Positions 12,974 to 63,851 of a DNA stretch of 64,000 bases are shown piece after piece (the first letter of the stretch is position 1; the number at the start of each line of letters is the position of its first letter). Both the position numbers and the translations under genes were made by a program. Location: positions 397,638-461,637 of the forward strand of contig JAVZHX010000001.1 in the NCBI GenBank assembly GCA_038871515.1, written 5' to 3'. This DNA is from Candidatus Micrarchaeia archaeon (GTDB taxonomy: Archaea > Micrarchaeota > Micrarchaeia > Burarchaeales > Fermentimicrarchaeaceae). A model generated the notes under the pieces. It was not told where the DNA came from. It saw nothing but the letters and a program-made list of their open reading frames with translations, and made no database searches.

Positions 12974-13063
12974 GCTCCAGTCGTCTAGTCCGGTCAAGGA
13001 TCCCGGCCTTTCGTGCTTGCGCGAGGAAAGCCGGCGACCCGGGTTCAAATCCCGGCTGGAGCA
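12974..13063 (+). tRNA. tRNA-Glu(UUC) with a canonical 15-nt intron (13014-13028, position 37/38)
   Basis: Hand-folded cloverleaf: acceptor GCTCCAG/CTGGAGC, anticodon stem CCGGC/GCCGG, loop CTTTCG[intron]A, T arm CCGGG-TTCAAAT-CCCGG, discriminator A. Confidence 0.85.
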
Positions 13064-13086
13064 CTTCTGAAAGAACAATTGCTCCA

Positions 13087-18489: not shown

Positions 18490-18500
18490 TCTTTCACCAG

Positions 18501-18588
18501 CGGGCCCGGAGGGATTCGAACCCTCAAACCAACTGGTCCGAAGCCTTGCGAGTTGCCTAGTCGCGCTATCCAGTTGCGCCACGGGCCC
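18501..18588 (-). tRNA. probable tRNA-Arg(UCG) with a 13-nt non-canonical insertion (18546-18558, about position 29/30)
   Basis: Acceptor GGGCCCG/CGGGCCC, D arm GCGC-AACTGGATA-GCGC, T arm GAGGG-TTCGAAT-CCCTC. Removing AGGCAACTCGCAA yields anticodon arm ACTGG-CTTCGGA-CCAGT. The variable loop would be 6 nt, so the fold is not fully canonical. Confidence 0.6.
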
Positions 18589-24445: not shown

Positions 24446-25582
24446 ATGGAGGAGCTGAGGGTTATTAATTTCCTAGATGCGTTCATCGCAAATGCTCTGT
24501 CTGTGCTGATTCCACTTATTCTTATTGCGAGAGGAGTTGATGTTGTTGGGGTTGGTTTTGTTGTTTCTATTTCTCCGGTTGTTTTTGTTGTTTCAAGAAG
24601 TGTTTTTGCTGCTTTGTCAGATCAGAGGGGAGTGAAGGAGTTTTTTGTTCTGAATGGGTTTATGAATGTGGTTGCGGTTGCTGTTTATATGGTTGCGAAT
24701 ACGCCGCTGATGTTTTCTGTTGGAAAGATGTTTGAGGGGGTGAGGAATGGGGCGATATGGGCGGTGAATAGAACTGCGGTGATTTATAAGAAAGGGAAGG
24801 AGAGAGCTGCTGAGGAGATGTCAAAAATTCAAGCAATCAGGACGGCTTCTGCTGCGTTTGGAATTGTGGTGGTTGGTTTATTGTTGCAGAGTTATTCGTT
24901 TGATGTGGCGCTGCTCTTCTTCATTGTACTGAGTTTTGTGCTTCTTGGGGTGAGTTTCTTAACTCAGGGAAGGAGGAAGTCAAAAATTAAGTTTAAGAGG
25001 TTGTTTGAGCAGCTTGATTTCAGAAGCAAAAGTGAAGTTTTGAAGAGGACGAGCCTTGTGCTGGTTTTTCAGTCGGTTGCAACAAACACGTTGCTTTCCT
25101 TGGTTTTTCCTCTTTTTTTGAAGGAGATGGAGTGTGATTATTGGTTGATTGGTTTTGTGATTGCGGTGTATTACTTGGTGAGCGCTGTTGTTGCATTCCT
25201 GCTTTCAAAAAAGAATGTGATATCTCTTTTTGTTTATTTGTGGTTGGGTGCTTTCCTTTTCTTTTTCGGGGCGGTTGTTACTCCGTTTCTGTGGGGAGCG
25301 TGGGCGATTCCTTTTATTCTGTTGATGGGGGTTGGGGATGGAATGAGTATGCCTGTTTGGGAGGTGTTGGTTTTCAATTCATTAAGAAGCAAGAATGATG
25401 TTTCAAGTGATATCGCGCTTGTCCACACACCGCCAAATCTTTTGAATTCGGTTGGTGTTATCGTTGCTGGTTTGTTGATTAAGGTGTTTGGTTATTGGGT
25501 TGTTTTTGTGTTGTGTGGTGTTTTGTTTGTTCTATTTGCTTACTTTTCATCAAAAATCTTGAAGGGTTGTTGGGAGGTTTAA
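24446..25582 (+). CDS. MFS-type transporter
   Basis: About 12 hydrophobic segments with a basic loop in the middle (RRKSKIKFKR). The start could be GTG 24440. Confidence 0.65.
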   Translation: MEELRVINFLDAFIANALSVLIPLILIARGVDVVGVGFVVSISPVVFVVSRSVFAALSDQRGVKEFFVLNGFMNVVAVAVYMVANTPLMFSVGKMFEGVRNGAIWAVNRTAVIYKKGKERAAEEMSKIQAIRTASAAFGIVVVGLLLQSYSFDVALLFFIVLSFVLLGVSFLTQGRRKSKIKFKRLFEQLDFRSKSEVLKRTSLVLVFQSVATNTLLSLVFPLFLKEMECDYWLIGFVIAVYYLVSAVVAFLLSKKNVISLFVYLWLGAFLFFFGAVVTPFLWGAWAIPFILLMGVGDGMSMPVWEVLVFNSLRSKNDVSSDIALVHTPPNLLNSVGVIVAGLLIKVFGYWVVFVLCGVLFVLFAYFSSKILKGCWEV

Positions 25583-25962
25583 GGTTTGTCTGAGTTTTTG
25601 TATTTTTTGTAAAGCTCATTAACTGTTCTTTCATCAATCCTTTTATCAAAATAAGCATGAGGTAGCAATGCGCCGCTGAATGTTTTTGGTATGTGGATGA
25701 GCTCGTGAATTAAAACCTTATCTTTCTCTTCTTCAGGAAGAGAGTCAAAATGCTCTGAGAGAACTTCAATTATGTAGTAGGTTCTGATGTCTAACGCTTT
25801 CTGCCAAATTTTTGGGAGGTTCCAGATGCGGGCGTATGCCTTTGCTTCGGAGCCTTTGGAGCGCATGCAGATTATCCGGAGGGAATTGATGTGTTCTAAA
25901 TTAAGTGTTTGGATTATTTTGTTTACTCTTTCCTGAATGTCTGGAGCGAGCTCAAATTGCAT
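25579..25962 (-). CDS. putative zinc metallopeptidase (HExxH)
   Basis: 127 aa with LIHELIHIP (HExxH). Resembles the small predicted archaeal metallopeptidase family. Confidence 0.55.
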   Translation of the reverse strand: MQFELAPDIQERVNKIIQTLNLEHINSLRIICMRSKGSEAKAYARIWNLPKIWQKALDIRTYYIIEVLSEHFDSLPEEEKDKVLIHELIHIPKTFSGALLPHAYFDKRIDERTVNELYKKYKNSDKP

Positions 25963-39636: not shown

Positions 39637-40947
39637 ATGAAGGAAGACGAGATAGCGGAAATTTTACTTGACTGGAATTTTTGGGAAAAGGAGCAACCAG
39701 CAGGAATACCCAGGCCCCTCTATCAAGATACGATAAAGAATTTCCTCAAAACAAACCAGATTATTGTAATCATAGGTGTAAGAAGAAGCGGCAAATCCAC
39801 AATAATGATGCAGACAGCAAAAACGTTAATTGACTCCGGTACTGACCCTCATGACATATTACTGGTCAACTTTGAAGATTACAGATTTTACGAGTTTTCA
39901 CTAAAACTTTTGCAACAAATTTATGATTTCTATCTTGAGAAGATAGCAAAAGGGAAGGATAGATACATTTTTCTCGATGAGGTTCACAACATCAAAGGGT
40001 GGGAGAGGTTTGTTAGGACTCTAGTAGACAAGAAGGAGGCAAAGATAATTGTTTCAGGCTCCAGCTCAAAATTAATGGGCAGGGAGCTCGCCACCCTACT
40101 CACCGGCAGACACATAAACTTGCTCGTCTTCCCACTAACCTTCAAAGAATTCCTGCTCTTTAAAAATCTAAAATTAGACAAAGAGACAGAACGTATAAGC
40201 AGAAGGAGAGAGATAAAAAAACTGCTTGCTGAATTCCTTGGATATGGTTCATTTCCAGAGGTTGTTTTGGCAGATAAGAAAGTAAGATATAAAATGCTCG
40301 TTGATTACATTGAAAGTATAATAAACAAAGACATTGTGACGAGATATAGAATAAAGGAAACGCAAAAGCTCAGAGCATTAGTCAAATTCTATATGACAAA
40401 TATAGCATCGCCAGTAAGCTTCAACAAAATAAAAAACTGGCTATCTCTTCCTTTGAGAACTGTGGAGAGGTTCTCCTACTATCTGGAAGAAGCCTATTTG
40501 GTATATTTCCTGAGAAGATTTTCCTTCAAGGTTAAGAAACAGGAAAAATCAGCGCGGAAGATATATGTTATAGACCAGGGTTTGTCAAACGCATACGGGC
40601 TCAAATTCAGTGCGAATGTTGGCAGAGTAATGGAAAATGTCGTTCTGCTGGAACTGCTTAAGAATGGCGCACAGGTTTATTACTGGAAAAGCCAAACAGG
40701 AAAAGAGGTGGACTTTGTCATTGAAGAAAACTTGAAAGCTAAACAACTCATTCAGATATGCTATGACGTGAGCGATTATAACGTAAAAATTAGAGAGGCG
40801 AGTGCTTTAATAAAAGCTTCTGAGGAGCTGAAATGCAGAAATCTTGTTGTGATCACTTGGGATTATGAATCCGAGGAAAAAATCCAAGGAGTTAAAATAA
40901 AATTTGTTCCTCTCTGGAAATGGCTTCTGGATGTCAAATCAGACTGA
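39637..40947 (+). CDS. COG1373-type ATPase (AAA domain plus DUF4143-like C-terminal domain), copy 1
   Basis: Walker A GVRRSGKST and Walker B IFLDEVHNI. The C-terminal EVDFVI...ITWDYE resembles the nuclease-like DUF4143 end. Confidence 0.75.
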   Translation: MKEDEIAEILLDWNFWEKEQPAGIPRPLYQDTIKNFLKTNQIIVIIGVRRSGKSTIMMQTAKTLIDSGTDPHDILLVNFEDYRFYEFSLKLLQQIYDFYLEKIAKGKDRYIFLDEVHNIKGWERFVRTLVDKKEAKIIVSGSSSKLMGRELATLLTGRHINLLVFPLTFKEFLLFKNLKLDKETERISRRREIKKLLAEFLGYGSFPEVVLADKKVRYKMLVDYIESIINKDIVTRYRIKETQKLRALVKFYMTNIASPVSFNKIKNWLSLPLRTVERFSYYLEEAYLVYFLRRFSFKVKKQEKSARKIYVIDQGLSNAYGLKFSANVGRVMENVVLLELLKNGAQVYYWKSQTGKEVDFVIEENLKAKQLIQICYDVSDYNVKIREASALIKASEELKCRNLVVITWDYESEEKIQGVKIKFVPLWKWLLDVKSD

Positions 40948-45722: not shown

Positions 45723-46991
45723 ATGTTATTCCACCCGATACTAAAGGAACAGAGGGAGGAGCTTGAGCAAATAGAAAGGGAAGAGAACATCATTGAACGG
45801 GATAAGCATAACGAGGCAAAAAACCTTTTGGAACACCCAAACATTCTTGCAGTTCTTGGAATTCGAAGGTGTGGCAAATCGGTTTTTTCGTATCTGCTTG
45901 CCAAAGACAGCATGGGTTATGTAAACTTTGATGATGAGAGGCTTGCCGGCTTGAAAGGACAGGAGCTTAACAACATCCTCCAATCAATCTACGAGCTTTA
46001 TGGCGATGTGAAATACCTAGTCCTTGACGAGGTTCAGAATGTTGATAACTGGGAGCTCTTTGCTAACCGACTGAGGAGAACCAAGAGGGTTATTCTCACC
46101 GGAAGCAACTCCAAACTACTTTCAGGTGAACTTGCAACACACCTCACTGGAAGATATGTGAGCATCAACCTATTCCCCTTCTCCTTCCAAGAATTTTTAA
46201 GATTTAAACGACACAAGTTGGAGGGGTTTCATACCACAAAGGAAAAAGCAATGCTCCTCACTCTTTTAAGGGAGTATTTGGAAACAGGAGGTCTCCCGGA
46301 AGCATACAAATTTGGCAAATCCATAATCGCGCGCATATATGACGACATAATCACAAAAGATCTTCTCCTGAGGTACAAAATAAAGAGAACCGCTGACCTC
46401 AGGCAGCTTGCAAGATATCTGGTAACAAACTCCGCGGAGGAGTTCACATACGGCAAACTCGCAAAAATTTTTGGGATAAAGCACATTTCAACGGTTTCCA
46501 ATTGGGTTTCATACCTTGAGAATTCCTTCCTTTTATTCAAAATTGACAGGTTTGACTTCAAGCTCAAAAAACAATTCCTCGCCCCCAAGAAAATTTACTG
46601 CGTTGATACTGGAATTATTAATACAGTTGGCTTCAAGTTTTCAGAGGATACGGGAAGGATAATTGAGAATGCAGTTGCTGTGGAACTACAGAGGAGAATA
46701 ACCTCTGCTGAGAGGAAGGAAATTTACTACTGGAAGGATCACCTGCAAAACGAAGTTGATTTTGTGGTGAAGGAGGGAAAAAGGATTACCCAGCTGATTC
46801 AGGTTGCATACGCAACTAAGAGAAATGAAATTAGGAGGAAGGAGCTCACAGCATTGGTGAAGGCAGGCAGAGAGTTAAGGTGCAGAAACCTCCTCGTGAT
46901 TACATGGGACTGCGAGCTTGAGGAGAGAGTTGGCGGATTCAGAGTAAGATTTGTTCCTCTCTGGAAATGGCTTCTTGGAGAGCCCAGATAA
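45723..46991 (+). CDS. COG1373-type ATPase (AAA plus DUF4143-like), copy 2
   Basis: Walker A GIRRCGKS, Walker B LVLDEVQNV, C-terminal EVDFVV...ITWDCE...FVPLWKWLL as in copy 1. Confidence 0.75.
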   Translation: MLFHPILKEQREELEQIEREENIIERDKHNEAKNLLEHPNILAVLGIRRCGKSVFSYLLAKDSMGYVNFDDERLAGLKGQELNNILQSIYELYGDVKYLVLDEVQNVDNWELFANRLRRTKRVILTGSNSKLLSGELATHLTGRYVSINLFPFSFQEFLRFKRHKLEGFHTTKEKAMLLTLLREYLETGGLPEAYKFGKSIIARIYDDIITKDLLLRYKIKRTADLRQLARYLVTNSAEEFTYGKLAKIFGIKHISTVSNWVSYLENSFLLFKIDRFDFKLKKQFLAPKKIYCVDTGIINTVGFKFSEDTGRIIENAVAVELQRRITSAERKEIYYWKDHLQNEVDFVVKEGKRITQLIQVAYATKRNEIRRKELTALVKAGRELRCRNLLVITWDCELEERVGGFRVRFVPLWKWLLGEPR

Positions 46992-56018: not shown

Positions 56019-56636
56019 CTATGGTTTTGCCATCCAAACATCAACCCCCCTCACCTTCACCCCCTCTCTCCTGAGCAACCTTTCAACCTCCCGAGAACTC
56101 CTTTGAGGAAAGAGAAGCGAGGCTATCCCTATTCTCAACCCGCCCAATTCCCTCACAAGCCCCTTCTTCTCACTCACGTACCTCCTCCCACCATAACTCT
56201 TCTCACTCCTCTTCCCAAAAAGCAGCCTGTTCACCCTATCCTTCTTCGCCTTCCCAAGCGCTTTCAAATCATATTTTATTATTCTATAAGGCTCCAAACC
56301 TAGCTTTCTCAGAGAAACATCCGGCATCTTACCTGAAATTACCTTTCCCTCCCTGAGAATTGTTTCAAGAAGTTGCCTGTTAACCCCACTCAATTTTGCG
56401 TTTAGGAAAACAACCTCTATGTTCACGTCATACTCTCCCTCCAGCTCCAAAATTCTCTTGGAAACTGCCTCCTGCGCTCTGCCATCATCTAGCACAACAG
56501 CCAAATCCAAATCCGATCTCCTGTCTGCTTCGCCCCTTGCAACCGAGCCGAAGACAATTATGGAGGAAACTCCTCTCAAGCTGCCAACTTTCTTTCTTAT
56601 CTCCTCTACAAGCTCTTTGAACCCCTTCTCAACCAC
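56019..56636 (-). CDS. minimal nucleotidyltransferase (MNT) domain protein with C-terminal extension
   Basis: Contains IIVFGSVARGEADRRSDLDLAVV (GS...DxD). Confidence 0.8.
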   Translation of the reverse strand: MVEKGFKELVEEIRKKVGSLRGVSSIIVFGSVARGEADRRSDLDLAVVLDDGRAQEAVSKRILELEGEYDVNIEVVFLNAKLSGVNRQLLETILREGKVISGKMPDVSLRKLGLEPYRIIKYDLKALGKAKKDRVNRLLFGKRSEKSYGGRRYVSEKKGLVRELGGLRIGIASLLFPQRSSREVERLLRREGVKVRGVDVWMAKP

Positions 56637-56997
56637 CTTTCAACACCTCCAAACACACCTCCTCCAGCTTCTTGAACTCCTTCTCAATTCTCTCCAAGTC
56701 AGCTTGGCTTCCCCTTCCACCATAAACAAATTTCGGCCTTAGCTGATTCTCTATTCTTTGGAAGCTCTCCCATACAACTCTTGTTTTCTCTCCGAATATG
56801 AAATCGTTTTCCTCCAGCATCCTCCTGACAAGCTGGTGCTTGTGTATGTGAACTCTGTTCTTTGCTGCGCATGCTTCCACCAAATGGTAGGCGGCCAGAA
56901 AATATGCTTCTGCTCTTGTTGCACTGAACAGATTTTTACTCTCCGCATCCCTCTTAAATTTCTCATACATCTCCTTGTGGGTTTGCATATCTGCCAA
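56629..56997 (-). CDS. HEPN-domain protein (partner of MNT)
   Basis: 122 aa, helical, with RVHIHKH fitting Rx4-6H. Overlaps the MNT gene by 8 nt. Confidence 0.6.
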   Translation of the reverse strand: MADMQTHKEMYEKFKRDAESKNLFSATRAEAYFLAAYHLVEACAAKNRVHIHKHQLVRRMLEENDFIFGEKTRVVWESFQRIENQLRPKFVYGGRGSQADLERIEKEFKKLEEVCLEVLKGG

Positions 56998-57006
56998 CGA
57001 ATCACC

Positions 57007-57068
57007 TTTCGGCAGATAATCTTACGAAATAGCAGTATATAAGCTTTTCGGCAGACTATCTTACGAAA
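57007..57068. promoter_or_regulatory. 23-nt direct repeat TTTCGGCAGAnnATCTTACGAAA (57007-57029 and 57046-57068) flanking a TATATAA box
   Basis: Read directly, with 2 mismatches between copies. Lies just upstream (minus-strand sense) of the HEPN-MNT operon start at 56997. Confidence 0.55.
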
Positions 57069-57791
57069 CTACTTCTCCACCACAATTCCCTTCGGCCCAA
57101 CCGTAACAGTTCTCGCAAGGAAATCGTGCTTCGTCAACCTCATCTTCTCAACAACAAGCGTTCTCTTCCCAAGCGCCTCTATCTTCGCGAGCTTTATCAC
57201 TCCGTCAACCAAATACTCACACGTTTCCTTTGCGCTCTCAAAAGTTCTCTCCTCATAAATGTAAACAACAGTGCACTTATCCGTCTCCTTCATCCTCCTG
57301 ATAAACCTTGTCGTCAATGCTCTCAGCAGCATATCCTCAGTGATTGGTATGCTTCCCACCTTTTTAATCGCCTCAAATATCTGGTCAGAAACAAACTCCT
57401 CCCTTGTCAGGGGAAGCTTGCTAAGGAATGAGGTGAGGGAGTCAATCACAACTCTTGCTGGTTTATACGTTTTAATATCTGAAACAATCACCCCTTCCAA
57501 ATCAGGCTCCCTTGTTATATCATAGTTTTTGAACTCAACAGGCAAACCCTCAAAATTCCACCCAAACAACTCCGCCTGCTCCTTCAAACTCTCCTCCCCC
57601 TGCGTAAACGAAATATACATCCCTTTATCTTTAAACTGCTTCGCGCCGTTGTAAAGGAACTGCAATCCAAGAATTGTTTTCAAAGTTCCCGGAGAACCCT
57701 TCACAAGCACCGCAGAACCCTCTGGAAAACCACCTTCAATTATCTTATCCAACTCCTCTATGCCAGTTGGAACCCTTTTAATATCCGCCAT
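57069..57791 (-). CDS. KaiC/RecA-superfamily ATPase-like protein with degenerate Walker A
   Basis: Contains TGIEELDKIIEGGFPEGSAVLVKGSPGTLKT (GTLKT instead of GTGKT) and Walker B ARVVIDSLTS. Confidence 0.75.
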   Translation of the reverse strand: MADIKRVPTGIEELDKIIEGGFPEGSAVLVKGSPGTLKTILGLQFLYNGAKQFKDKGMYISFTQGEESLKEQAELFGWNFEGLPVEFKNYDITREPDLEGVIVSDIKTYKPARVVIDSLTSFLSKLPLTREEFVSDQIFEAIKKVGSIPITEDMLLRALTTRFIRRMKETDKCTVVYIYEERTFESAKETCEYLVDGVIKLAKIEALGKRTLVVEKMRLTKHDFLARTVTVGPKGIVVEK

Positions 57792-57833
57792 TACCCCACC
57801 TCATCAATGAGAGAAATTAGTAGAAGAGAGTAT

Positions 57834-58613
57834 TTATAACTTATGCATACCCTCAAGCTTAACCAGTAAATCATTCTTCAACTCCAACCAATCCCTAGGC
57901 CTGTTGTTCAATGGGATGAACGGGTTTGTGAGATTGCGTAGTTTTCTGTAATCCATCTTTCTAACTGCCTGAATAGTCCGCTTTAGAAACTCCCCAACCC
58001 CCTCCTCGCTTCTTTCAGACTCTAACATTTTTTTAATCGCGTTCTCCATCCTGCCGCAGAGAGGTAAAGCGTTATACACATCATACACATCCTTCCCTTC
58101 AGCTCGTGTGCAAAGCGCATGCATCTTCCGTGCAACCAAATCCTCCAAAGAGTAAACATGAAAGCCGCTGACAAGCTGCTGCGTATATGAAGACATCGCT
58201 GCTTTAACTACAACTGGTTTATCAGTTACAATTCTCTTTGCTGCGATATCAACTCGCACATGACCCTCCCCCCCAAGTGGGCTATCATAAGTGCAGTAGA
58301 ACTGGAGTGAACTGCCAACCCTACGAAATTCCACTATTTCATACCCTTCCATTCCTTCAGATAGTTCTCTGCAAAGCCTCTGCACCTCCCCCATGCTCTC
58401 TGTGCCTGAGTCAAAGTCCAAATCATCTGAAAAGCGCTGGAGCTTTCCAAGGTAGACTTTATTCAGGGCAGTCCCTCCTTTAAAAACAATATTCGGTTGT
58501 TGTGCGGTTATCTTGCTCAGCACGTCAAAAACATAGAATTCCTTCACAATAAACTGCAGGGGCAGCCCGTACTTCACTGCCATGTTCCTGCACGCTTCCA
58601 GGTTAATCTCCAC
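57834..58613 (-). CDS. AbiEii/AbiGii-family nucleotidyltransferase toxin (DUF1814)
   Basis: Contains VFKGGTALNKVY....RFSDDLDFD. Confidence 0.8.
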   Translation of the reverse strand: MEINLEACRNMAVKYGLPLQFIVKEFYVFDVLSKITAQQPNIVFKGGTALNKVYLGKLQRFSDDLDFDSGTESMGEVQRLCRELSEGMEGYEIVEFRRVGSSLQFYCTYDSPLGGEGHVRVDIAAKRIVTDKPVVVKAAMSSYTQQLVSGFHVYSLEDLVARKMHALCTRAEGKDVYDVYNALPLCGRMENAIKKMLESERSEEGVGEFLKRTIQAVRKMDYRKLRNLTNPFIPLNNRPRDWLELKNDLLVKLEGMHKL

Positions 58614-58617
58614 CCTC

Positions 58618-59223
58618 TCACCCCCTGATGAAATTTACTACCTTCTCCATTCTCTTGGCGAGTTTGCCTTTTGCAAATTTTTTCACGTAGGTGTTAAACT
58701 CCCTCCACTCCTGTCCCGTAAGTCCCGCCTCCTTATATGTAGCGATAAGCTTATCCATCTCAACAGAATATCTTGGCAGGTAAAGACAATCAAACAGCGT
58801 TTTAGCCCGAGTTGAAATTACATACCCTCCAATTTTAGCAAAGCCAATCGCTTTTTCATCAAGGGCCACAGCTCTGAATTCATACTCCCCAAATCTCTTC
58901 ACTTTTGATGTGCTCGTTGTGACGACAATTAAACTGAACGGCATCTCGGAGATAAGCTTGTGAAGGTACAGGGCGGTGGAGAAACCCAGATAGCCGTTAA
59001 ACGTTGCCTGTGCGCACGCATATGGATCTCTCATCGGTTTGATGGAATAAACCCCTCGCTTTAGACGGATGATTCTGCCAGACTTGTTCAGGCGGCTCAG
59101 GGTAGTTTTCAGTGTGAACGAATCGCTCAGCTTGAGACTTTCCAGGACATCCAGCGTTGCAATTCCATAGGGAGAAGCGGATATTGCATCCAGCACCGCT
59201 TGGCTGATTTTCATACTTGACAT
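58618..59223 (-). CDS. AbiEi-family antitoxin / transcriptional regulator
   Basis: N-terminal wHTH (TLSRLNKSGRIIRLKRGVYS) plus a C-terminal domain, immediately upstream of AbiEii. Confidence 0.7.
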   Translation of the reverse strand: MSSMKISQAVLDAISASPYGIATLDVLESLKLSDSFTLKTTLSRLNKSGRIIRLKRGVYSIKPMRDPYACAQATFNGYLGFSTALYLHKLISEMPFSLIVVTTSTSKVKRFGEYEFRAVALDEKAIGFAKIGGYVISTRAKTLFDCLYLPRYSVEMDKLIATYKEAGLTGQEWREFNTYVKKFAKGKLAKRMEKVVNFIRG

Positions 59224-59573
59224 GTATTAATAAACGAATTGTTTATTATTAAATGTTTCTATAAAGGAGTAAATCCTTCGGTCAGTTCACAAACAACTTC
59301 CCAAAACATTCCATCCCAGTTATAGTAAACCTCTTCACACAACCGACGCATAAATCTATGTTATGTATAATTAACACAAACTAGAAAATAAGTTACTTGC
59401 ATATGACAAAAATTCAATGTTAAAAAGGATATATCCTTTCATCTGAAAGAGAGGAAAAGATAAAAATTGAGGGAAAAGTTATAGAAGTTGTGCCTCTCTT
59501 CAAATTTCTCCTGAACTTTGCACCCAGCTTCAAATGTTAACTTTAAATATACAATTGTTCTATAATAAAGAAC

Positions 59574-60164
59574 ATGTTAGAACTGCTTATTCGGTCGAAA
59601 ACAGAAGTAAAAATACTTGGAGTTGTTCTGTTTGAGAATGAGCTCCACTTGCGGGAGATAGCGAGGAGAGCTGGCGCCAGCCCCTCAGAAACAAAAAAGG
59701 AGCTGGACAACCTTGTGCGCCTTGGCGTCCTGAGGAAGCAGAGGCGGGGCAATCAGCTGCTCTTCGCTGTAAACACCCAATGCCCGTTCCTCAGCGAGCT
59801 CAGGAGTTTTTACATAAAAACAGATGGAGTTGCTGAGCAGCTCAGGAAAACTCTCTCCAAAAAATATGGTGTGAAGTACGCTTTCATTTTCGGCAGCCTG
59901 GCAGCTGGAAGCTTCAGCCAGAAAAGCGATGTTGATATCCTCATAATCGGCAGTATTGATGAAGAGGAAATTGCAAGAGATACCTCTCACCTTCAGAAAA
60001 TAACTGGCAGGGAAATAAACTGGGTGCTTTGGAGCGAAAGAGACTTTGCAAGTAAGTTAAAAGAGAAGGGTTCATTTATTACCTCTGTGCTTAGAGGAAA
60101 GCGCATATGGCTAAAGGGTGATGAAAGTGAATTTGAAAGAATTACTTCAAAAGCGACTGGTTGA
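59574..60164 (+). CDS. wHTH-fused minimal nucleotidyltransferase (MNT)
   Basis: Contains LHLREIARRAGASPSETKKELDNLVRLGVL, then FIFGSLAAGSFSQKSDVDILIIG. Confidence 0.8.
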   Translation: MLELLIRSKTEVKILGVVLFENELHLREIARRAGASPSETKKELDNLVRLGVLRKQRRGNQLLFAVNTQCPFLSELRSFYIKTDGVAEQLRKTLSKKYGVKYAFIFGSLAAGSFSQKSDVDILIIGSIDEEEIARDTSHLQKITGREINWVLWSERDFASKLKEKGSFITSVLRGKRIWLKGDESEFERITSKATG

Positions 60165-60558
60165 AAAGTCCACGCAGGATTTGAAACTATCAGCAAAGTT
60201 CCTGTCAGATGCACACAGAGACATCTCGGCAGCCGAAGATAATTTGAAGACGAAACATCCTGACTGGGCTTTGGCGATTGCATACAATGCAATGCTCTCT
60301 GCAGGAATGGCGCTTATGGCGTATAAGGGTTATCGCACCTTTGCCGAATCGCACCACGTTGCAGTTGTGCAGTTCTGCGCAGCTGTTATGCCTCCAGACT
60401 CGGCAACACTCGTGAGCGTATTCAACCGCTACCGGGTTAGGAGGCATGATGTAATCTACGGAGAGTCCAGCTCTGTTGGAGAGGATGAGGCAAGAAAAGC
60501 TATTGAGAATACAAAGAAGTTTGTTGAGCAAATTGAAAAAATTATAAAAGTCAGTTAA
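60121..60558 (+). CDS. HEPN-domain protein
   Basis: Helical, with RYRVRRH fitting Rx4-6H. Overlaps the upstream MNT gene. Confidence 0.7.
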   Translation: MKVNLKELLQKRLVEKSTQDLKLSAKFLSDAHRDISAAEDNLKTKHPDWALAIAYNAMLSAGMALMAYKGYRTFAESHHVAVVQFCAAVMPPDSATLVSVFNRYRVRRHDVIYGESSSVGEDEARKAIENTKKFVEQIEKIIKVS

Positions 60559-61499: not shown

Positions 61500-61601
61500 T
61501 AGCGGGGCGTGGATTTGAACCACGGATCTCTGGGTTATGAGCCCAGCGGGCATTACGGTAGCTTCCGAGAAGAAGCTATCTCCATGCTACCCTACCCCGC
61601 T
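61500..61601 (-). tRNA. initiator tRNA-Met(CAU) with an insertion of about 26-28 nt in the D-loop (within 61552-61588)
   Basis: A1:U72 acceptor AGCGGGG/CCCCGCT and anticodon arm CTGGG-CTCATAA-CCCAG with three G:C pairs. T arm is CGTGG-TTCAAAT-CCACG. The D stem GGGT/GCCC encloses 37 nt including a 7-bp hairpin TAGCTTC/GAAGCTA. Confidence 0.8.
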
Positions 61602-63186: not shown

Positions 63187-63693
63187 TTATTCTATTTTCT
63201 TCCCATGCGCCTGTGGCACAACCCTCAGTTTCGCGTTTTCAAACCTTTTTTCAAGCTCCTTTCCCTCAAAATACCTGTCAAGAAAAACAGCCAGCGCAGC
63301 AACCTCTGAGTGTGGCTGGGTTGAAACAGATATGTTATAATCTACGTTTCTATAAACTTCTGGAGGAACCTTCTCAGCCCCAACCACCAAAAGAAGCTTT
63401 TTCTCCTTTCTCAGCTCATCAATTTTTTCATTCAGCGGTTCCCCATACATAGTGAGGTGGACAGTTTTTCCATCCCACTCTCTCAATACTGCTCTCCAAT
63501 CCTTTCTGTATTCCACTTCAAAATTCCCTCCCCACTTCTCAACAACCCCCTTCACACTTCTTATAACTGACTCATCTCTCTCCCCTGAAAGAAAAACCTT
63601 ATCCGCTCCAAGCGCCCTTGCCGCTAAACAGACGTGGGTTGTCACCCTCGCATCCCTTCCAACCCTATGCCCCAACCGAAGAACCGCAATCAT
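63187..63693 (-). CDS. tRNA (cytidine56-2'-O)-methyltransferase aTrm56 (SPOUT)
   Basis: MIAVLRLGHRVGRDARVTTHVCLAARALGADKV matches the aTrm56 N-terminus. Start taken at ATG 63693. Confidence 0.8.
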   Translation of the reverse strand: MIAVLRLGHRVGRDARVTTHVCLAARALGADKVFLSGERDESVIRSVKGVVEKWGGNFEVEYRKDWRAVLREWDGKTVHLTMYGEPLNEKIDELRKEKKLLLVVGAEKVPPEVYRNVDYNISVSTQPHSEVAALAVFLDRYFEGKELEKRFENAKLRVVPQAHGKKIE

Positions 63694-63736
63694 AAACAAC
63701 CTTTTTATTCTCTAACCTATTAAACATATTCCACAT

Positions 63737-63837
63737 GGGCCCGTAGCTCAGCGTGGCAGAGCGGCTGAAAGTTTGCCGAAGCTCTTAACTTCGCTGGCGA
63801 AACCAGTAGGTCGCGCGTTCAAATCGCGCCGGGCCCG
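63737..63837 (+). tRNA. probable tRNA-Lys(CUU) requiring removal of two insertions (63768-63780 and 63790-63803) flanking the anticodon loop
   Basis: Acceptor GGGCCCG/CGGGCCC, D arm GCTC-AGCGTGGCA-GAGC, T arm GCGCG-TTCAAAT-CGCGC. Excising 13 nt and 14 nt gives GCTGG-CTCTTAA-CCAGT plus variable AGGTC, a 74-nt canonical tRNA. Confidence 0.65.
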
Positions 63838-63851
63838 CTTCCGGTGGTTTT

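Follow-up and report, generated by a model that had tools for sequence, protein, structure and literature searches.

How a functional lysine tRNA could be made from a gene with 27 extra nucleotides around its anticodon loop is the question raised by positions 63737-63837 of the window (the whole 64,000-nt stretch of DNA analysed here). An earlier note on this DNA, made from the sequence alone, read the locus as a tRNA-Lys(CUU) gene in which two short excisions would remove the 27 nucleotides and leave 74, and both Rfam and ARAGORN agree with this reading. The Rfam tRNA model RF00005 matches exactly 63737-63837 on the + strand and scores 47.1 bits (E-value 4e-9), where the gathering score is 29. 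This match was obtained with permissive filters only, and a default gathering run over the window missed the gene. In the RF00005 alignment the insert measures 36 nt against 9 expected, which gives the 27 extra nucleotides. The region is a genuine tRNA, far above chance.

Gene structure and mature product

The precursor has the order GGGCCCG-UA-GCUC-AGCGUGGCA-GAGC-G-GCUG...CAGU-AGGUC-GCGCG-UUCAAAU-CGCGC-CGGGCCC-G. Splicing in silico, by removal of 13 and 14 nt, shortens this 101-nt precursor to a 74-nt sequence, which ARAGORN recognizes as a canonical tRNA-Lys(CUU) with the anticodon stem GCUGG/CCAGU, the loop CUCUUAA and U33. The ARAGORN check proposed in the earlier note gave Lys(CUU) for the spliced sequence but failed on the raw one, for which the program reports Lys(CUU) with a wrong start at 63750 and, in intron mode, Leu(UAA). 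The mature tRNA aligns to a tRNA-Lys(CUU) from Micrarchaeota (L110) with a score of 69/73, or approximately 94 % identity. Between 63600 and 64000 there are no differences between the window and an independent Logan assembly of the source run. We conclude that this is a lysine tRNA gene with two short introns, which is ordinary archaeal biology, and that standard tRNA finders mis-handle such genes. Its parts are as follows (a slash within a triplet marks the predicted cut).

63702-63709 (+): T-rich, TATA-like box (TTTTTATT) about 30 nt 5' of the tRNA; a putative archaeal promoter
63737-63767 (+): exon 1, positions 1-30, comprising the acceptor 5' strand, the D arm, G26 and GCUG 27-30 (Rfam, ARAGORN)
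63758-63761 (+): AGAG, predicted 5' strand of the intron-1 outer helix (h'), formed by the last D-loop base and the D-stem 3' strand; partner CUCU at 63782-63785
63762-63765 (+): CGGC, positions 25-28, predicted 5' strand of the intron-1 central helix (H), with 4/4 pairs to GCCG at 63775-63778
63766-63768 (+): UG/A, predicted intron-1 5' splice-site triplet, inside a 9-nt terminal loop (motif scan)
63768-63780 (+): intron 1, 13 nt (AAAGUUUGCCGAA), at the non-canonical position 30/31, with a unique placement (deletion test, geometric scan)
63775-63778 (+): GCCG, predicted 3' strand of the intron-1 central helix, within intron 1 (motif scan)
63779-63781 (+): AA/G, 3-nt bulge with the predicted intron-1 3' splice site (motif scan)
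63781-63787 (+): exon 2, 7 nt, G31 followed by C32-U33-C34-U35-U36-A37; the anticodon CUU is 63784-63786
63782-63785 (+): CUCU, positions 32-35, partner in the predicted intron-1 outer helix and also 5' strand of the predicted intron-2 central helix
63788-63801 (+): intron 2, 14 nt (ACUUCGCUGGCGAA), at the canonical position 37/38, the best of four equivalent placements by geometry
63796-63799 (+): GGCG, predicted 3' strand of the intron-2 central helix; against CUCU it gives C-G, UxC, C-G and U·G
63800-63802 (+): AA/A, 3-nt bulge with the predicted intron-2 3' splice site (motif scan)
63802-63837 (+): exon 3, positions 38-73, comprising A38, CCAGU, AGGUC, the T arm, the acceptor 3' strand and the discriminator G, without an encoded CCA
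63848-63851 (+): short T-run downstream of the tRNA, a putative archaeal terminator

A similar T/A-rich box is found by alignment at an equal distance upstream of the tRNA in two syntenic loci, L116 (a sister contig from the metagenome) and L050 (Micrarchaeota).

Cleavage motif of intron 1

We defined the cleavage motif as a 4-bp central helix between two 3-nt bulges, each lying 3' of its own helix strand, with the cut between its second and third nucleotides. For calibration we used the 37/38 intron of the tRNA-Glu gene in the window and the statement that in 37/38 introns the central helix contains the first two anticodon bases (PMC4090602). In the geometric scan the tRNA-Glu intron, which is 15 nt long, has a central helix with 4/4 pairs, an outer helix of 5 bp and an inner helix of 2 bp.

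A blind strict scan of the Lys precursor returned the cut pair 63767/63768 and 63780/63781, which corresponds to intron 1. This is where the earlier note had placed its first excision (30/31), and 63768-63780 is the sole 13-nt deletion that yields the mature sequence. The central helix CGGC/GCCG has 4/4 pairs, the outer helix AGAG/CUCU has 4 bp, and the 3' bulge is AA/G. The 5' site follows directly after CGGC, two nucleotides 3' of the helix strand, and is symmetric to the 3' site across the 4-bp helix. A central helix with 4/4 pairs arises in 0.7 % of shuffled introns. The helix is present in the unconstrained minimum free energy (MFE) fold; its pair probabilities fall from about 0.99 at 37 °C to about 0.7 at 70 °C, and the outer-helix pairs reach 0.96-0.99.

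The scan found no real inner helix for intron 1 (1 bp, with the 5' site in the 9-nt loop), which places it outside the strict hBHBh' definition. The predicted structure is instead a perfect relaxed HBh' motif, also termed bulge-helix-loop (BHL), and it was overlooked in the earlier note. That note was nevertheless right that neither insertion forms a textbook bulge-helix-bulge (BHB), as both fail the strict definition. For the intron-1 motif to form, the D stem would have to open.

Conservation and covariation of the 30/31 intron

A pattern scan of 185,579 species-representative genomes yielded 111 genes that resemble tRNA-Lys(CUU) and carry additional nucleotides 5' of the anticodon loop. When the window gene is added, 81 of the 112 carry an intron exactly at 30/31. 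The hosts of this intron belong to Desulfurococcales, Sulfolobales, Thermoproteales (Thermoproteus, Pyrobaculum), Methanomethylicia, Bathyarchaeia, Nitrososphaerota, Micrarchaeota, Woesearchaeota and Nanoarchaeota. The 30/31 intron, found in 80 reference genomes, is a standing feature of public data. A text search of the literature for a 30/31 intron in tRNA-Lys(CUU) returned nothing relevant, the primary intron-position catalogues being outside its scope.

In 74 genes a 30/31 intron is combined with a D stem directly upstream. The central helix has 4/4 pairs in 68 of these, and the outer helix is paired in every one, either as AGAG/CUCU or as GGAG/CUCU with one G·U pair. The position of the bulge (AGG or AAG) is the same in most of them.

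Covariation was assessed on a register-fixed alignment of 27 distinct motif versions. Compensatory changes on both sides are present at three of the four central-helix pairs (22 cells in total), and the helix variants include CGGC/GCCG, CAAC/GUUG, CAUC/GAUG and CACU/AGUG. The covariation score of the helix was reached by 0 of 500 shuffles, and sliding the 3' partner by 1-3 columns lowered pairing from 95 % to 20-57 %. Since the central helix covaries, the intron sequence follows exon positions 26-28, as is needed for a cleavage motif. Both strands of the outer helix belong to exons, and this helix is therefore unable to covary; among the 27 versions its first pair is A-U in 23 and G-U in 4, and the remaining three pairs are invariant.

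The two-intron layout recurs in 17 other distinct genes, including that of the syntenic sister L116, where the intron sequences are different and the mature tRNA deviates in the D-loop only. Intron 2 is absent from the close relatives L050, L110 and L119, which have intron 1 alone.

Position and motif of intron 2

Four 14-nt deletions (63787-63800, 63788-63801, 63789-63802 and 63790-63803, corresponding to 36/37 through 39/40) give an identical product because of the flanking AAC/AAAC repeat. The site of intron 2 is ambiguous by sequence over this range, and the predicted pairing register fits 37/38 best. Only this register has bulge-helix-bulge geometry together with an outer helix (3/4 central pairs, 5-bp outer helix), and we rejected 36/37, 38/39 and 39/40, which by hand gave at most 3/4 central pairs and no outer helix. 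ARAGORN in intron mode, run after removal of intron 1, also calls a 14-nt intron (acttcgctggcgaa) at the canonical site.

The second excision was assigned to 39/40 in the earlier note; the product was correctly derived, but nothing places the cut specifically there. We consider cleavage at any of the three other sites (36/37, 38/39 or 39/40) in place of 37/38 very unlikely. The mature sequence is the same for all four placements, and the product cannot discriminate among them, but 3-nt bulges flanking a 4-position helix with a 5-bp anticodon-stem outer helix exist at 37/38 only. All relatives that have a second intron also fit 37/38, with CUCU mostly pairing with GGAG or AGAG.

The outer helix of intron 2 is the anticodon stem itself, which has 1 bp before intron 1 is removed and 5 bp afterwards. 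The central helix has one mismatch, U33xC63798, and intron 2 falls outside the strict hBHBh' definition; its inner helix was not found in the geometric scan (0 bp). The mismatched base C63798 is confirmed by the independent assembly. A strand that makes a perfect helix (GGAG, AGAG or AGGG) is present in 20 of 30 other genes with a second insertion; L116, at the same syntenic position, has GGAG and a perfect intron-2 helix. Single mismatches in this helix are also found in L076/L112, L107 and L117. The folding energy is -32.6 kcal/mol with the central helix and -33.1 kcal/mol without it, and a C-to-A change would bring it to -37.1 kcal/mol; the net stability of the helix is lost because of the U·C mismatch. 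For the intermediate from which intron 1 has been removed, the cloverleaf fold is not predicted. Unmodified tRNA sequences commonly are not predicted as cloverleaf. Judged from its predicted pairing, intron 2 sits at the canonical position in a relaxed motif that has degraded, and it is the weakest link of our model.

Proposed processing and alternative interpretations

We propose that the anticodon-arm region of the primary transcript would not be in the cloverleaf fold. AGAG, from the last D-loop base and the D-stem 3' strand, would pair with CUCU (C32-U35) to form the outer helix, and CGGC (C25-C28) would pair with GCCG of intron 1 to form the 4-bp central helix. The 3' splice site AA/G would then lie in a 3-nt bulge and the 5' site UG/A in a loop across the helix, and a splicing endonuclease of broad specificity could accept this fold as a relaxed HBh' (bulge-helix-loop) substrate. 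Once intron 1 has been cut out and the ends ligated, the 5-bp anticodon stem would be able to form. CUCU would then pair with GGCG of intron 2 in a weak BHB-like motif with the bulges UA/A and AA/A, and removal of intron 2 would give the 74-nt tRNA, to which CCA would be added. The intron-1 and intron-2 motifs are mutually exclusive because both use CUCU at 63782-63785, and for this reason processing is expected to be stepwise, with intron 1 removed first. The earlier note had considered the processing of this RNA an open question; a specific answer is now suggested by the placement of intron 1 in an HBh' motif with the D-stem 3' strand, a motif that is both conserved and covarying.

The observed sequences, motif geometry, conservation, covariation and in-silico product are all consistent with this model, and we consider it quite probable that a functional tRNA-Lys(CUU) gene with two protein-spliced archaeal introns lies here. 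The sequencing runs that matched the locus in our run searches are DNA metagenomes only, and it is from the sequence observations that we infer splicing itself, its efficiency and which of the two introns is removed first.

The earlier note had put forward a different structure, one long precursor helix that joins the two insertions through GUUU/AAAC, GCC/GGC and CGAAG/CUUCG. All three complementary segments are present, but they cannot form simultaneously because C63777 belongs to two of them. The extended fold has an energy of -39.1 kcal/mol as written and -41.1 kcal/mol when optimised, against -46.8 and -47.8 kcal/mol for folds with the intron-1 motif. This is a deficit of 6-9 kcal/mol, and the probability of its pairs is about 0. 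The complementarity between the insertions (-8.6 kcal/mol) is reached by 2.3 % of shuffles and is modestly above chance, which is what can be said for an RNA that folds as an extended hairpin and is either cut once, with loss of the anticodon loop, or functional unspliced as a non-tRNA. The scan also finds a BHB-like geometry that would suit such a hairpin, with GCUG/CAGU as the central helix and GUUU/AAAC as the inner helix; its partner bulge lies in the variable loop, however, and we rejected it because the excision of 63770-63809 deletes the anticodon arm. GUUU/AAAC as a central helix was rejected for wrong handedness, as its AAA bulge is 5' of the strand and cleavage needs it 3'. Pairing between insertions above chance was found in 0 of the 17 other distinct two-intron genes (the value for the sister L116 is 0.27), and the one-intron orthologues are plainly tRNA-Lys(CUU). 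We treat the helix between the insertions as incidental and regard the extended hairpin as extremely improbable. The alternative raised in the earlier note, a single cut pair that deletes the anticodon loop, falls with it, as it depends on the disfavoured fold and leaves a product without an anticodon arm. The chance that the gene is instead a tRNA-Leu(UAA) whose variable arm is long and whose single intron has 16 nt (63768-63783), the layout that ARAGORN proposes for the precursor in intron mode, is negligible. We rejected this layout for its faulty anticodon stem, in which one position is a U·C mismatch and two are G·U, and for a cut pair with 2/4 central-helix pairs; moreover, the tRNA body is identical to the tRNA-Lys(CUU) of L110 at 69/73 positions.

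The gene might also be decaying or poorly functional, with the intron-2 motif blocking or slowing the second step and AAG codons being read by another tRNA-Lys or by tRNA-Lys(UUU) through wobble. GGCG in place of the GGAG or AGAG of most relatives, and a central helix that contributes no stability, are consistent with such decay, as is the absence of intron 2 from L050, L110 and L119, which implies that this intron is dispensable and evolutionarily labile. The exon features, on the other hand, are all intact and canonical, the promoter-like box and the synteny are conserved, and L076/L112, L107 and L117 keep single mismatches too. Relaxed motifs are, furthermore, accepted by broad-specificity endonucleases (PMC3239211). 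We therefore find decay unlikely and favor the functional, two-intron gene. More speculatively, the 30/31 intron may be ancient and kept across phyla as the exon supplies the outer helix (AGAG with C32-U35), the hand-over of CUCU between the two introns may enforce their order, and the U·C mismatch together with the incidental inter-intron helix may retard the second step or let it regulate how much tRNA-Lys(CUU) is supplied; we think this combination unlikely.

Genomic context and the splicing enzyme

The sample is a hot-spring metagenome. Three genes upstream of the tRNA (aTrm56, a TFIIE-alpha-like gene and an HD/NUDIX gene) have 71-81 % amino-acid identity in tblastn to the neighbours of tRNA-Lys(CUU) in Micrarchaeota MAGs and in contig L116. 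All three neighbours are present in L116 and L050, whereas L110 has aTrm56 only. By this synteny the source is an uncultured archaeon in or close to Micrarchaeota, a DPANN lineage in which disrupted tRNAs and an ε2 endonuclease of broad specificity are on record. The rest of the window is an ordinary archaeal chromosome with genes for thermosome, PolB, TIP49, the pentose-phosphate pathway, purL/purQ and pyrB/pyrI.

Like the Lys gene, the other three of the four tRNA genes of the window are interrupted, and their motif geometry is correct. ARAGORN with default settings calls the Arg(UCG) gene "Ser(ACT)" and misses the initiator tRNA, and Rfam at the gathering threshold finds the Glu gene alone of the four. 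The stem-located intron of the Arg gene is not bridged by the Rfam tRNA model, and the gene was resolved by in-silico splicing followed by ARAGORN. Three of the four window tRNAs were thus beyond the default tools, and the tRNA sets of DPANN MAGs can be expected to show false gaps unless the search is intron-aware and based on BHB motifs.

A Pfam scan of 70 of the 75 ORFs called in the window gave no match to the splicing endonuclease family PF01974. ARMAN-1 and ARMAN-2, which are Micrarchaeota, carry an ε2 endonuclease (PMC3239211), the structure of which has been described (PMC12397907), and in vitro the ARMAN-2 enzyme cleaves relaxed as well as strict motifs (PMC3239211, PMC12397907). By phylogeny alone, as ε2 occurs in the same phylum, we infer that the organism may use an enzyme of this type.

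Comparison with known archaeal tRNA introns

Marck and Grosjean in 2003 and Sugahara and colleagues in 2007 and 2008 reportedly described archaeal tRNA genes with BHB/HBh' introns that are multiple or lie at non-canonical positions. Such introns with relaxed motifs are now textbook knowledge for archaeal tRNAs (PMC4090602, PMC4033280, PMC3241643). The known introns are short, protein-spliced and located off 37/38, often beside a canonical intron, and have relaxed hBH/HBh' splice sites that require a broad-specificity endonuclease; the window gene resembles them, with intron 1 off 37/38 and intron 2 probably at the canonical site. There is no difference in kind, although the intron-2 central helix in the window is mismatched. 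Intron 1 agrees with the relaxed class in those defining features that we tested, and both introns lie outside the strict hBHBh' class. The gene is one further example of a well-described phenomenon, and its practical importance is for annotation. It is also a natural substrate with an imperfect canonical-position motif, which could be used to probe the mismatch tolerance of ε2 or (αβ)2 endonucleases.

By synteny the window falls in the same phylum as ARMAN-2 (Candidatus Micrarchaeum), in which 56 % of the tRNA genes are disrupted (PMC3239211), compared with four of four in the window. The ε2 endonuclease of ARMAN-2 cuts 13-nt introns with relaxed motifs in vitro, the substrates tested being at 37/38 and 59/60, not 30/31. 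The closest likeness is to the other genes with a 30/31 intron, such as those of L116, of L110 and L050 (Micrarchaeota), of L016 and L120 (Woesearchaeota), of L012 (Pyrodictiaceae) and of many Desulfurococcales and Sulfolobales. These share with the window gene the intron position, the exon-only AGAG/CUCU helix, the 4-bp central helix between positions 25-28 and the 3' part of the intron, and the bulge positions; they differ from it in their intron sequences and in the strand that faces CUCU in intron 2, which is GGAG or AGAG rather than the GGCG of the window.

Interrupted tRNA genes in the window

All of the tRNA genes in the 64-kb window (4/4) are interrupted. Besides tRNA-Lys(CUU), they include a tRNA-Glu(UUC) gene with a textbook intron and an initiator-type tRNA-Met(CAU) gene, the fourth tRNA of the window:

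12974-13064, + strand, tRNA-Glu(UUC) gene
13014-13028, + strand, tRNA-Glu(UUC) intron, 15 nt, position 37/38
61500-61601, - strand, initiator-type tRNA-Met(CAU) gene
61553-61579, - strand, tRNA-Met(CAU) D-loop intron, 27 nt, AUAGCUUCUUCUCGGAAGCUACCGUAA

The tRNA-Glu intron lies in a motif with a complete central helix (H 4/4), an outer helix of 5 bp and an inner helix of 2 bp. ARAGORN in intron mode places a shifted intron in 12974-13064 and misreads this gene as Ser(UGA). The tRNA-Met(CAU) gene, with its A1-U72 end and GGG/CCC anticodon stem, was called neither by ARAGORN nor by Rfam at gathering score; its D-loop intron is enclosed by a near-strict bulge-helix-bulge motif (H AUGG/CCGU, inner helix 8 bp, outer helix 2 bp), and ARAGORN identifies the spliced 75-nt product as tRNA-Met.

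Gene neighborhood

The tRNA-Lys gene is adjacent to, and divergently transcribed from, the gene for a tRNA modification enzyme, and this adjacency is kept in three Micrarchaeota relatives (the metagenome sister L116, L050 and L110). Elsewhere in the window, GC content falls to ~0.34-0.41 at 40-56 kb, compared with ~0.44 outside this stretch, which harbours two AAA_14/DUF4143 paralogues and may represent a variable or island-like region. A defence or toxin-antitoxin-like gene cluster is found at 56019-60558, and a protein with a 'phage metallopeptidase' domain is encoded apart from it.

63187-63699, - strand, aTrm56, tRNA C56 2'-O-methyltransferase (PF01994, 3.5e-49)
39637-40947 and 45723-46991, AAA_14/DUF4143 ATPase genes
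56019-56636 and 59574-60164, two nucleotidyltransferase genes
57069-57791, KaiC-like ATPase
57834-59223, AbiEii/AbiEi
60118-60558, HEPN-domain gene, overlapping the second nucleotidyltransferase gene
25579-25962, 'phage metallopeptidase' domain protein

The 30/31 intron and a related design in tRNA-Arg

In the tRNA-Lys(CUU) comparison loci (L001-L120), drawn from numerous archaeal phyla, exon sequence alone forms the outer helix in the 30/31 intron motif, with AGAG at the end of the D-arm pairing with C32-U35; this may account for the occurrence of the 30/31 intron of tRNA-Lys(CUU) in so many lineages, be it by descent of a single ancient intron or by repeated gains. Five tRNA-Lys(CUU)-like loci from Micrarchaeota, including Ca. 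Fermentimicrarchaeum (L026, L051, L081, L083 and L088), carry two insertions of ~16 and ~14 nt, which do not fit the 30/31 or 37/38 geometry as used here.

The remaining tRNA gene of the window is interrupted at position 29/30:

18500-18588, - strand, tRNA-Arg(UCG) gene
18546-18558, - strand, tRNA-Arg(UCG) intron, 13 nt, AGGCAACUCGCAA

ARAGORN labels this gene tRNA-Ser(ACT), a reading rejected in favor of tRNA-Arg(UCG) with a 13-nt intron, and the Rfam tRNA model does not report it. Its central helix, GCGA/UCGC, pairs positions 24-27 with the 3' part of the intron, and is accompanied by a 3' bulge AA|G and an outer helix of 3 bp, a design that the 29/30 intron shares with intron 1 of tRNA-Lys.
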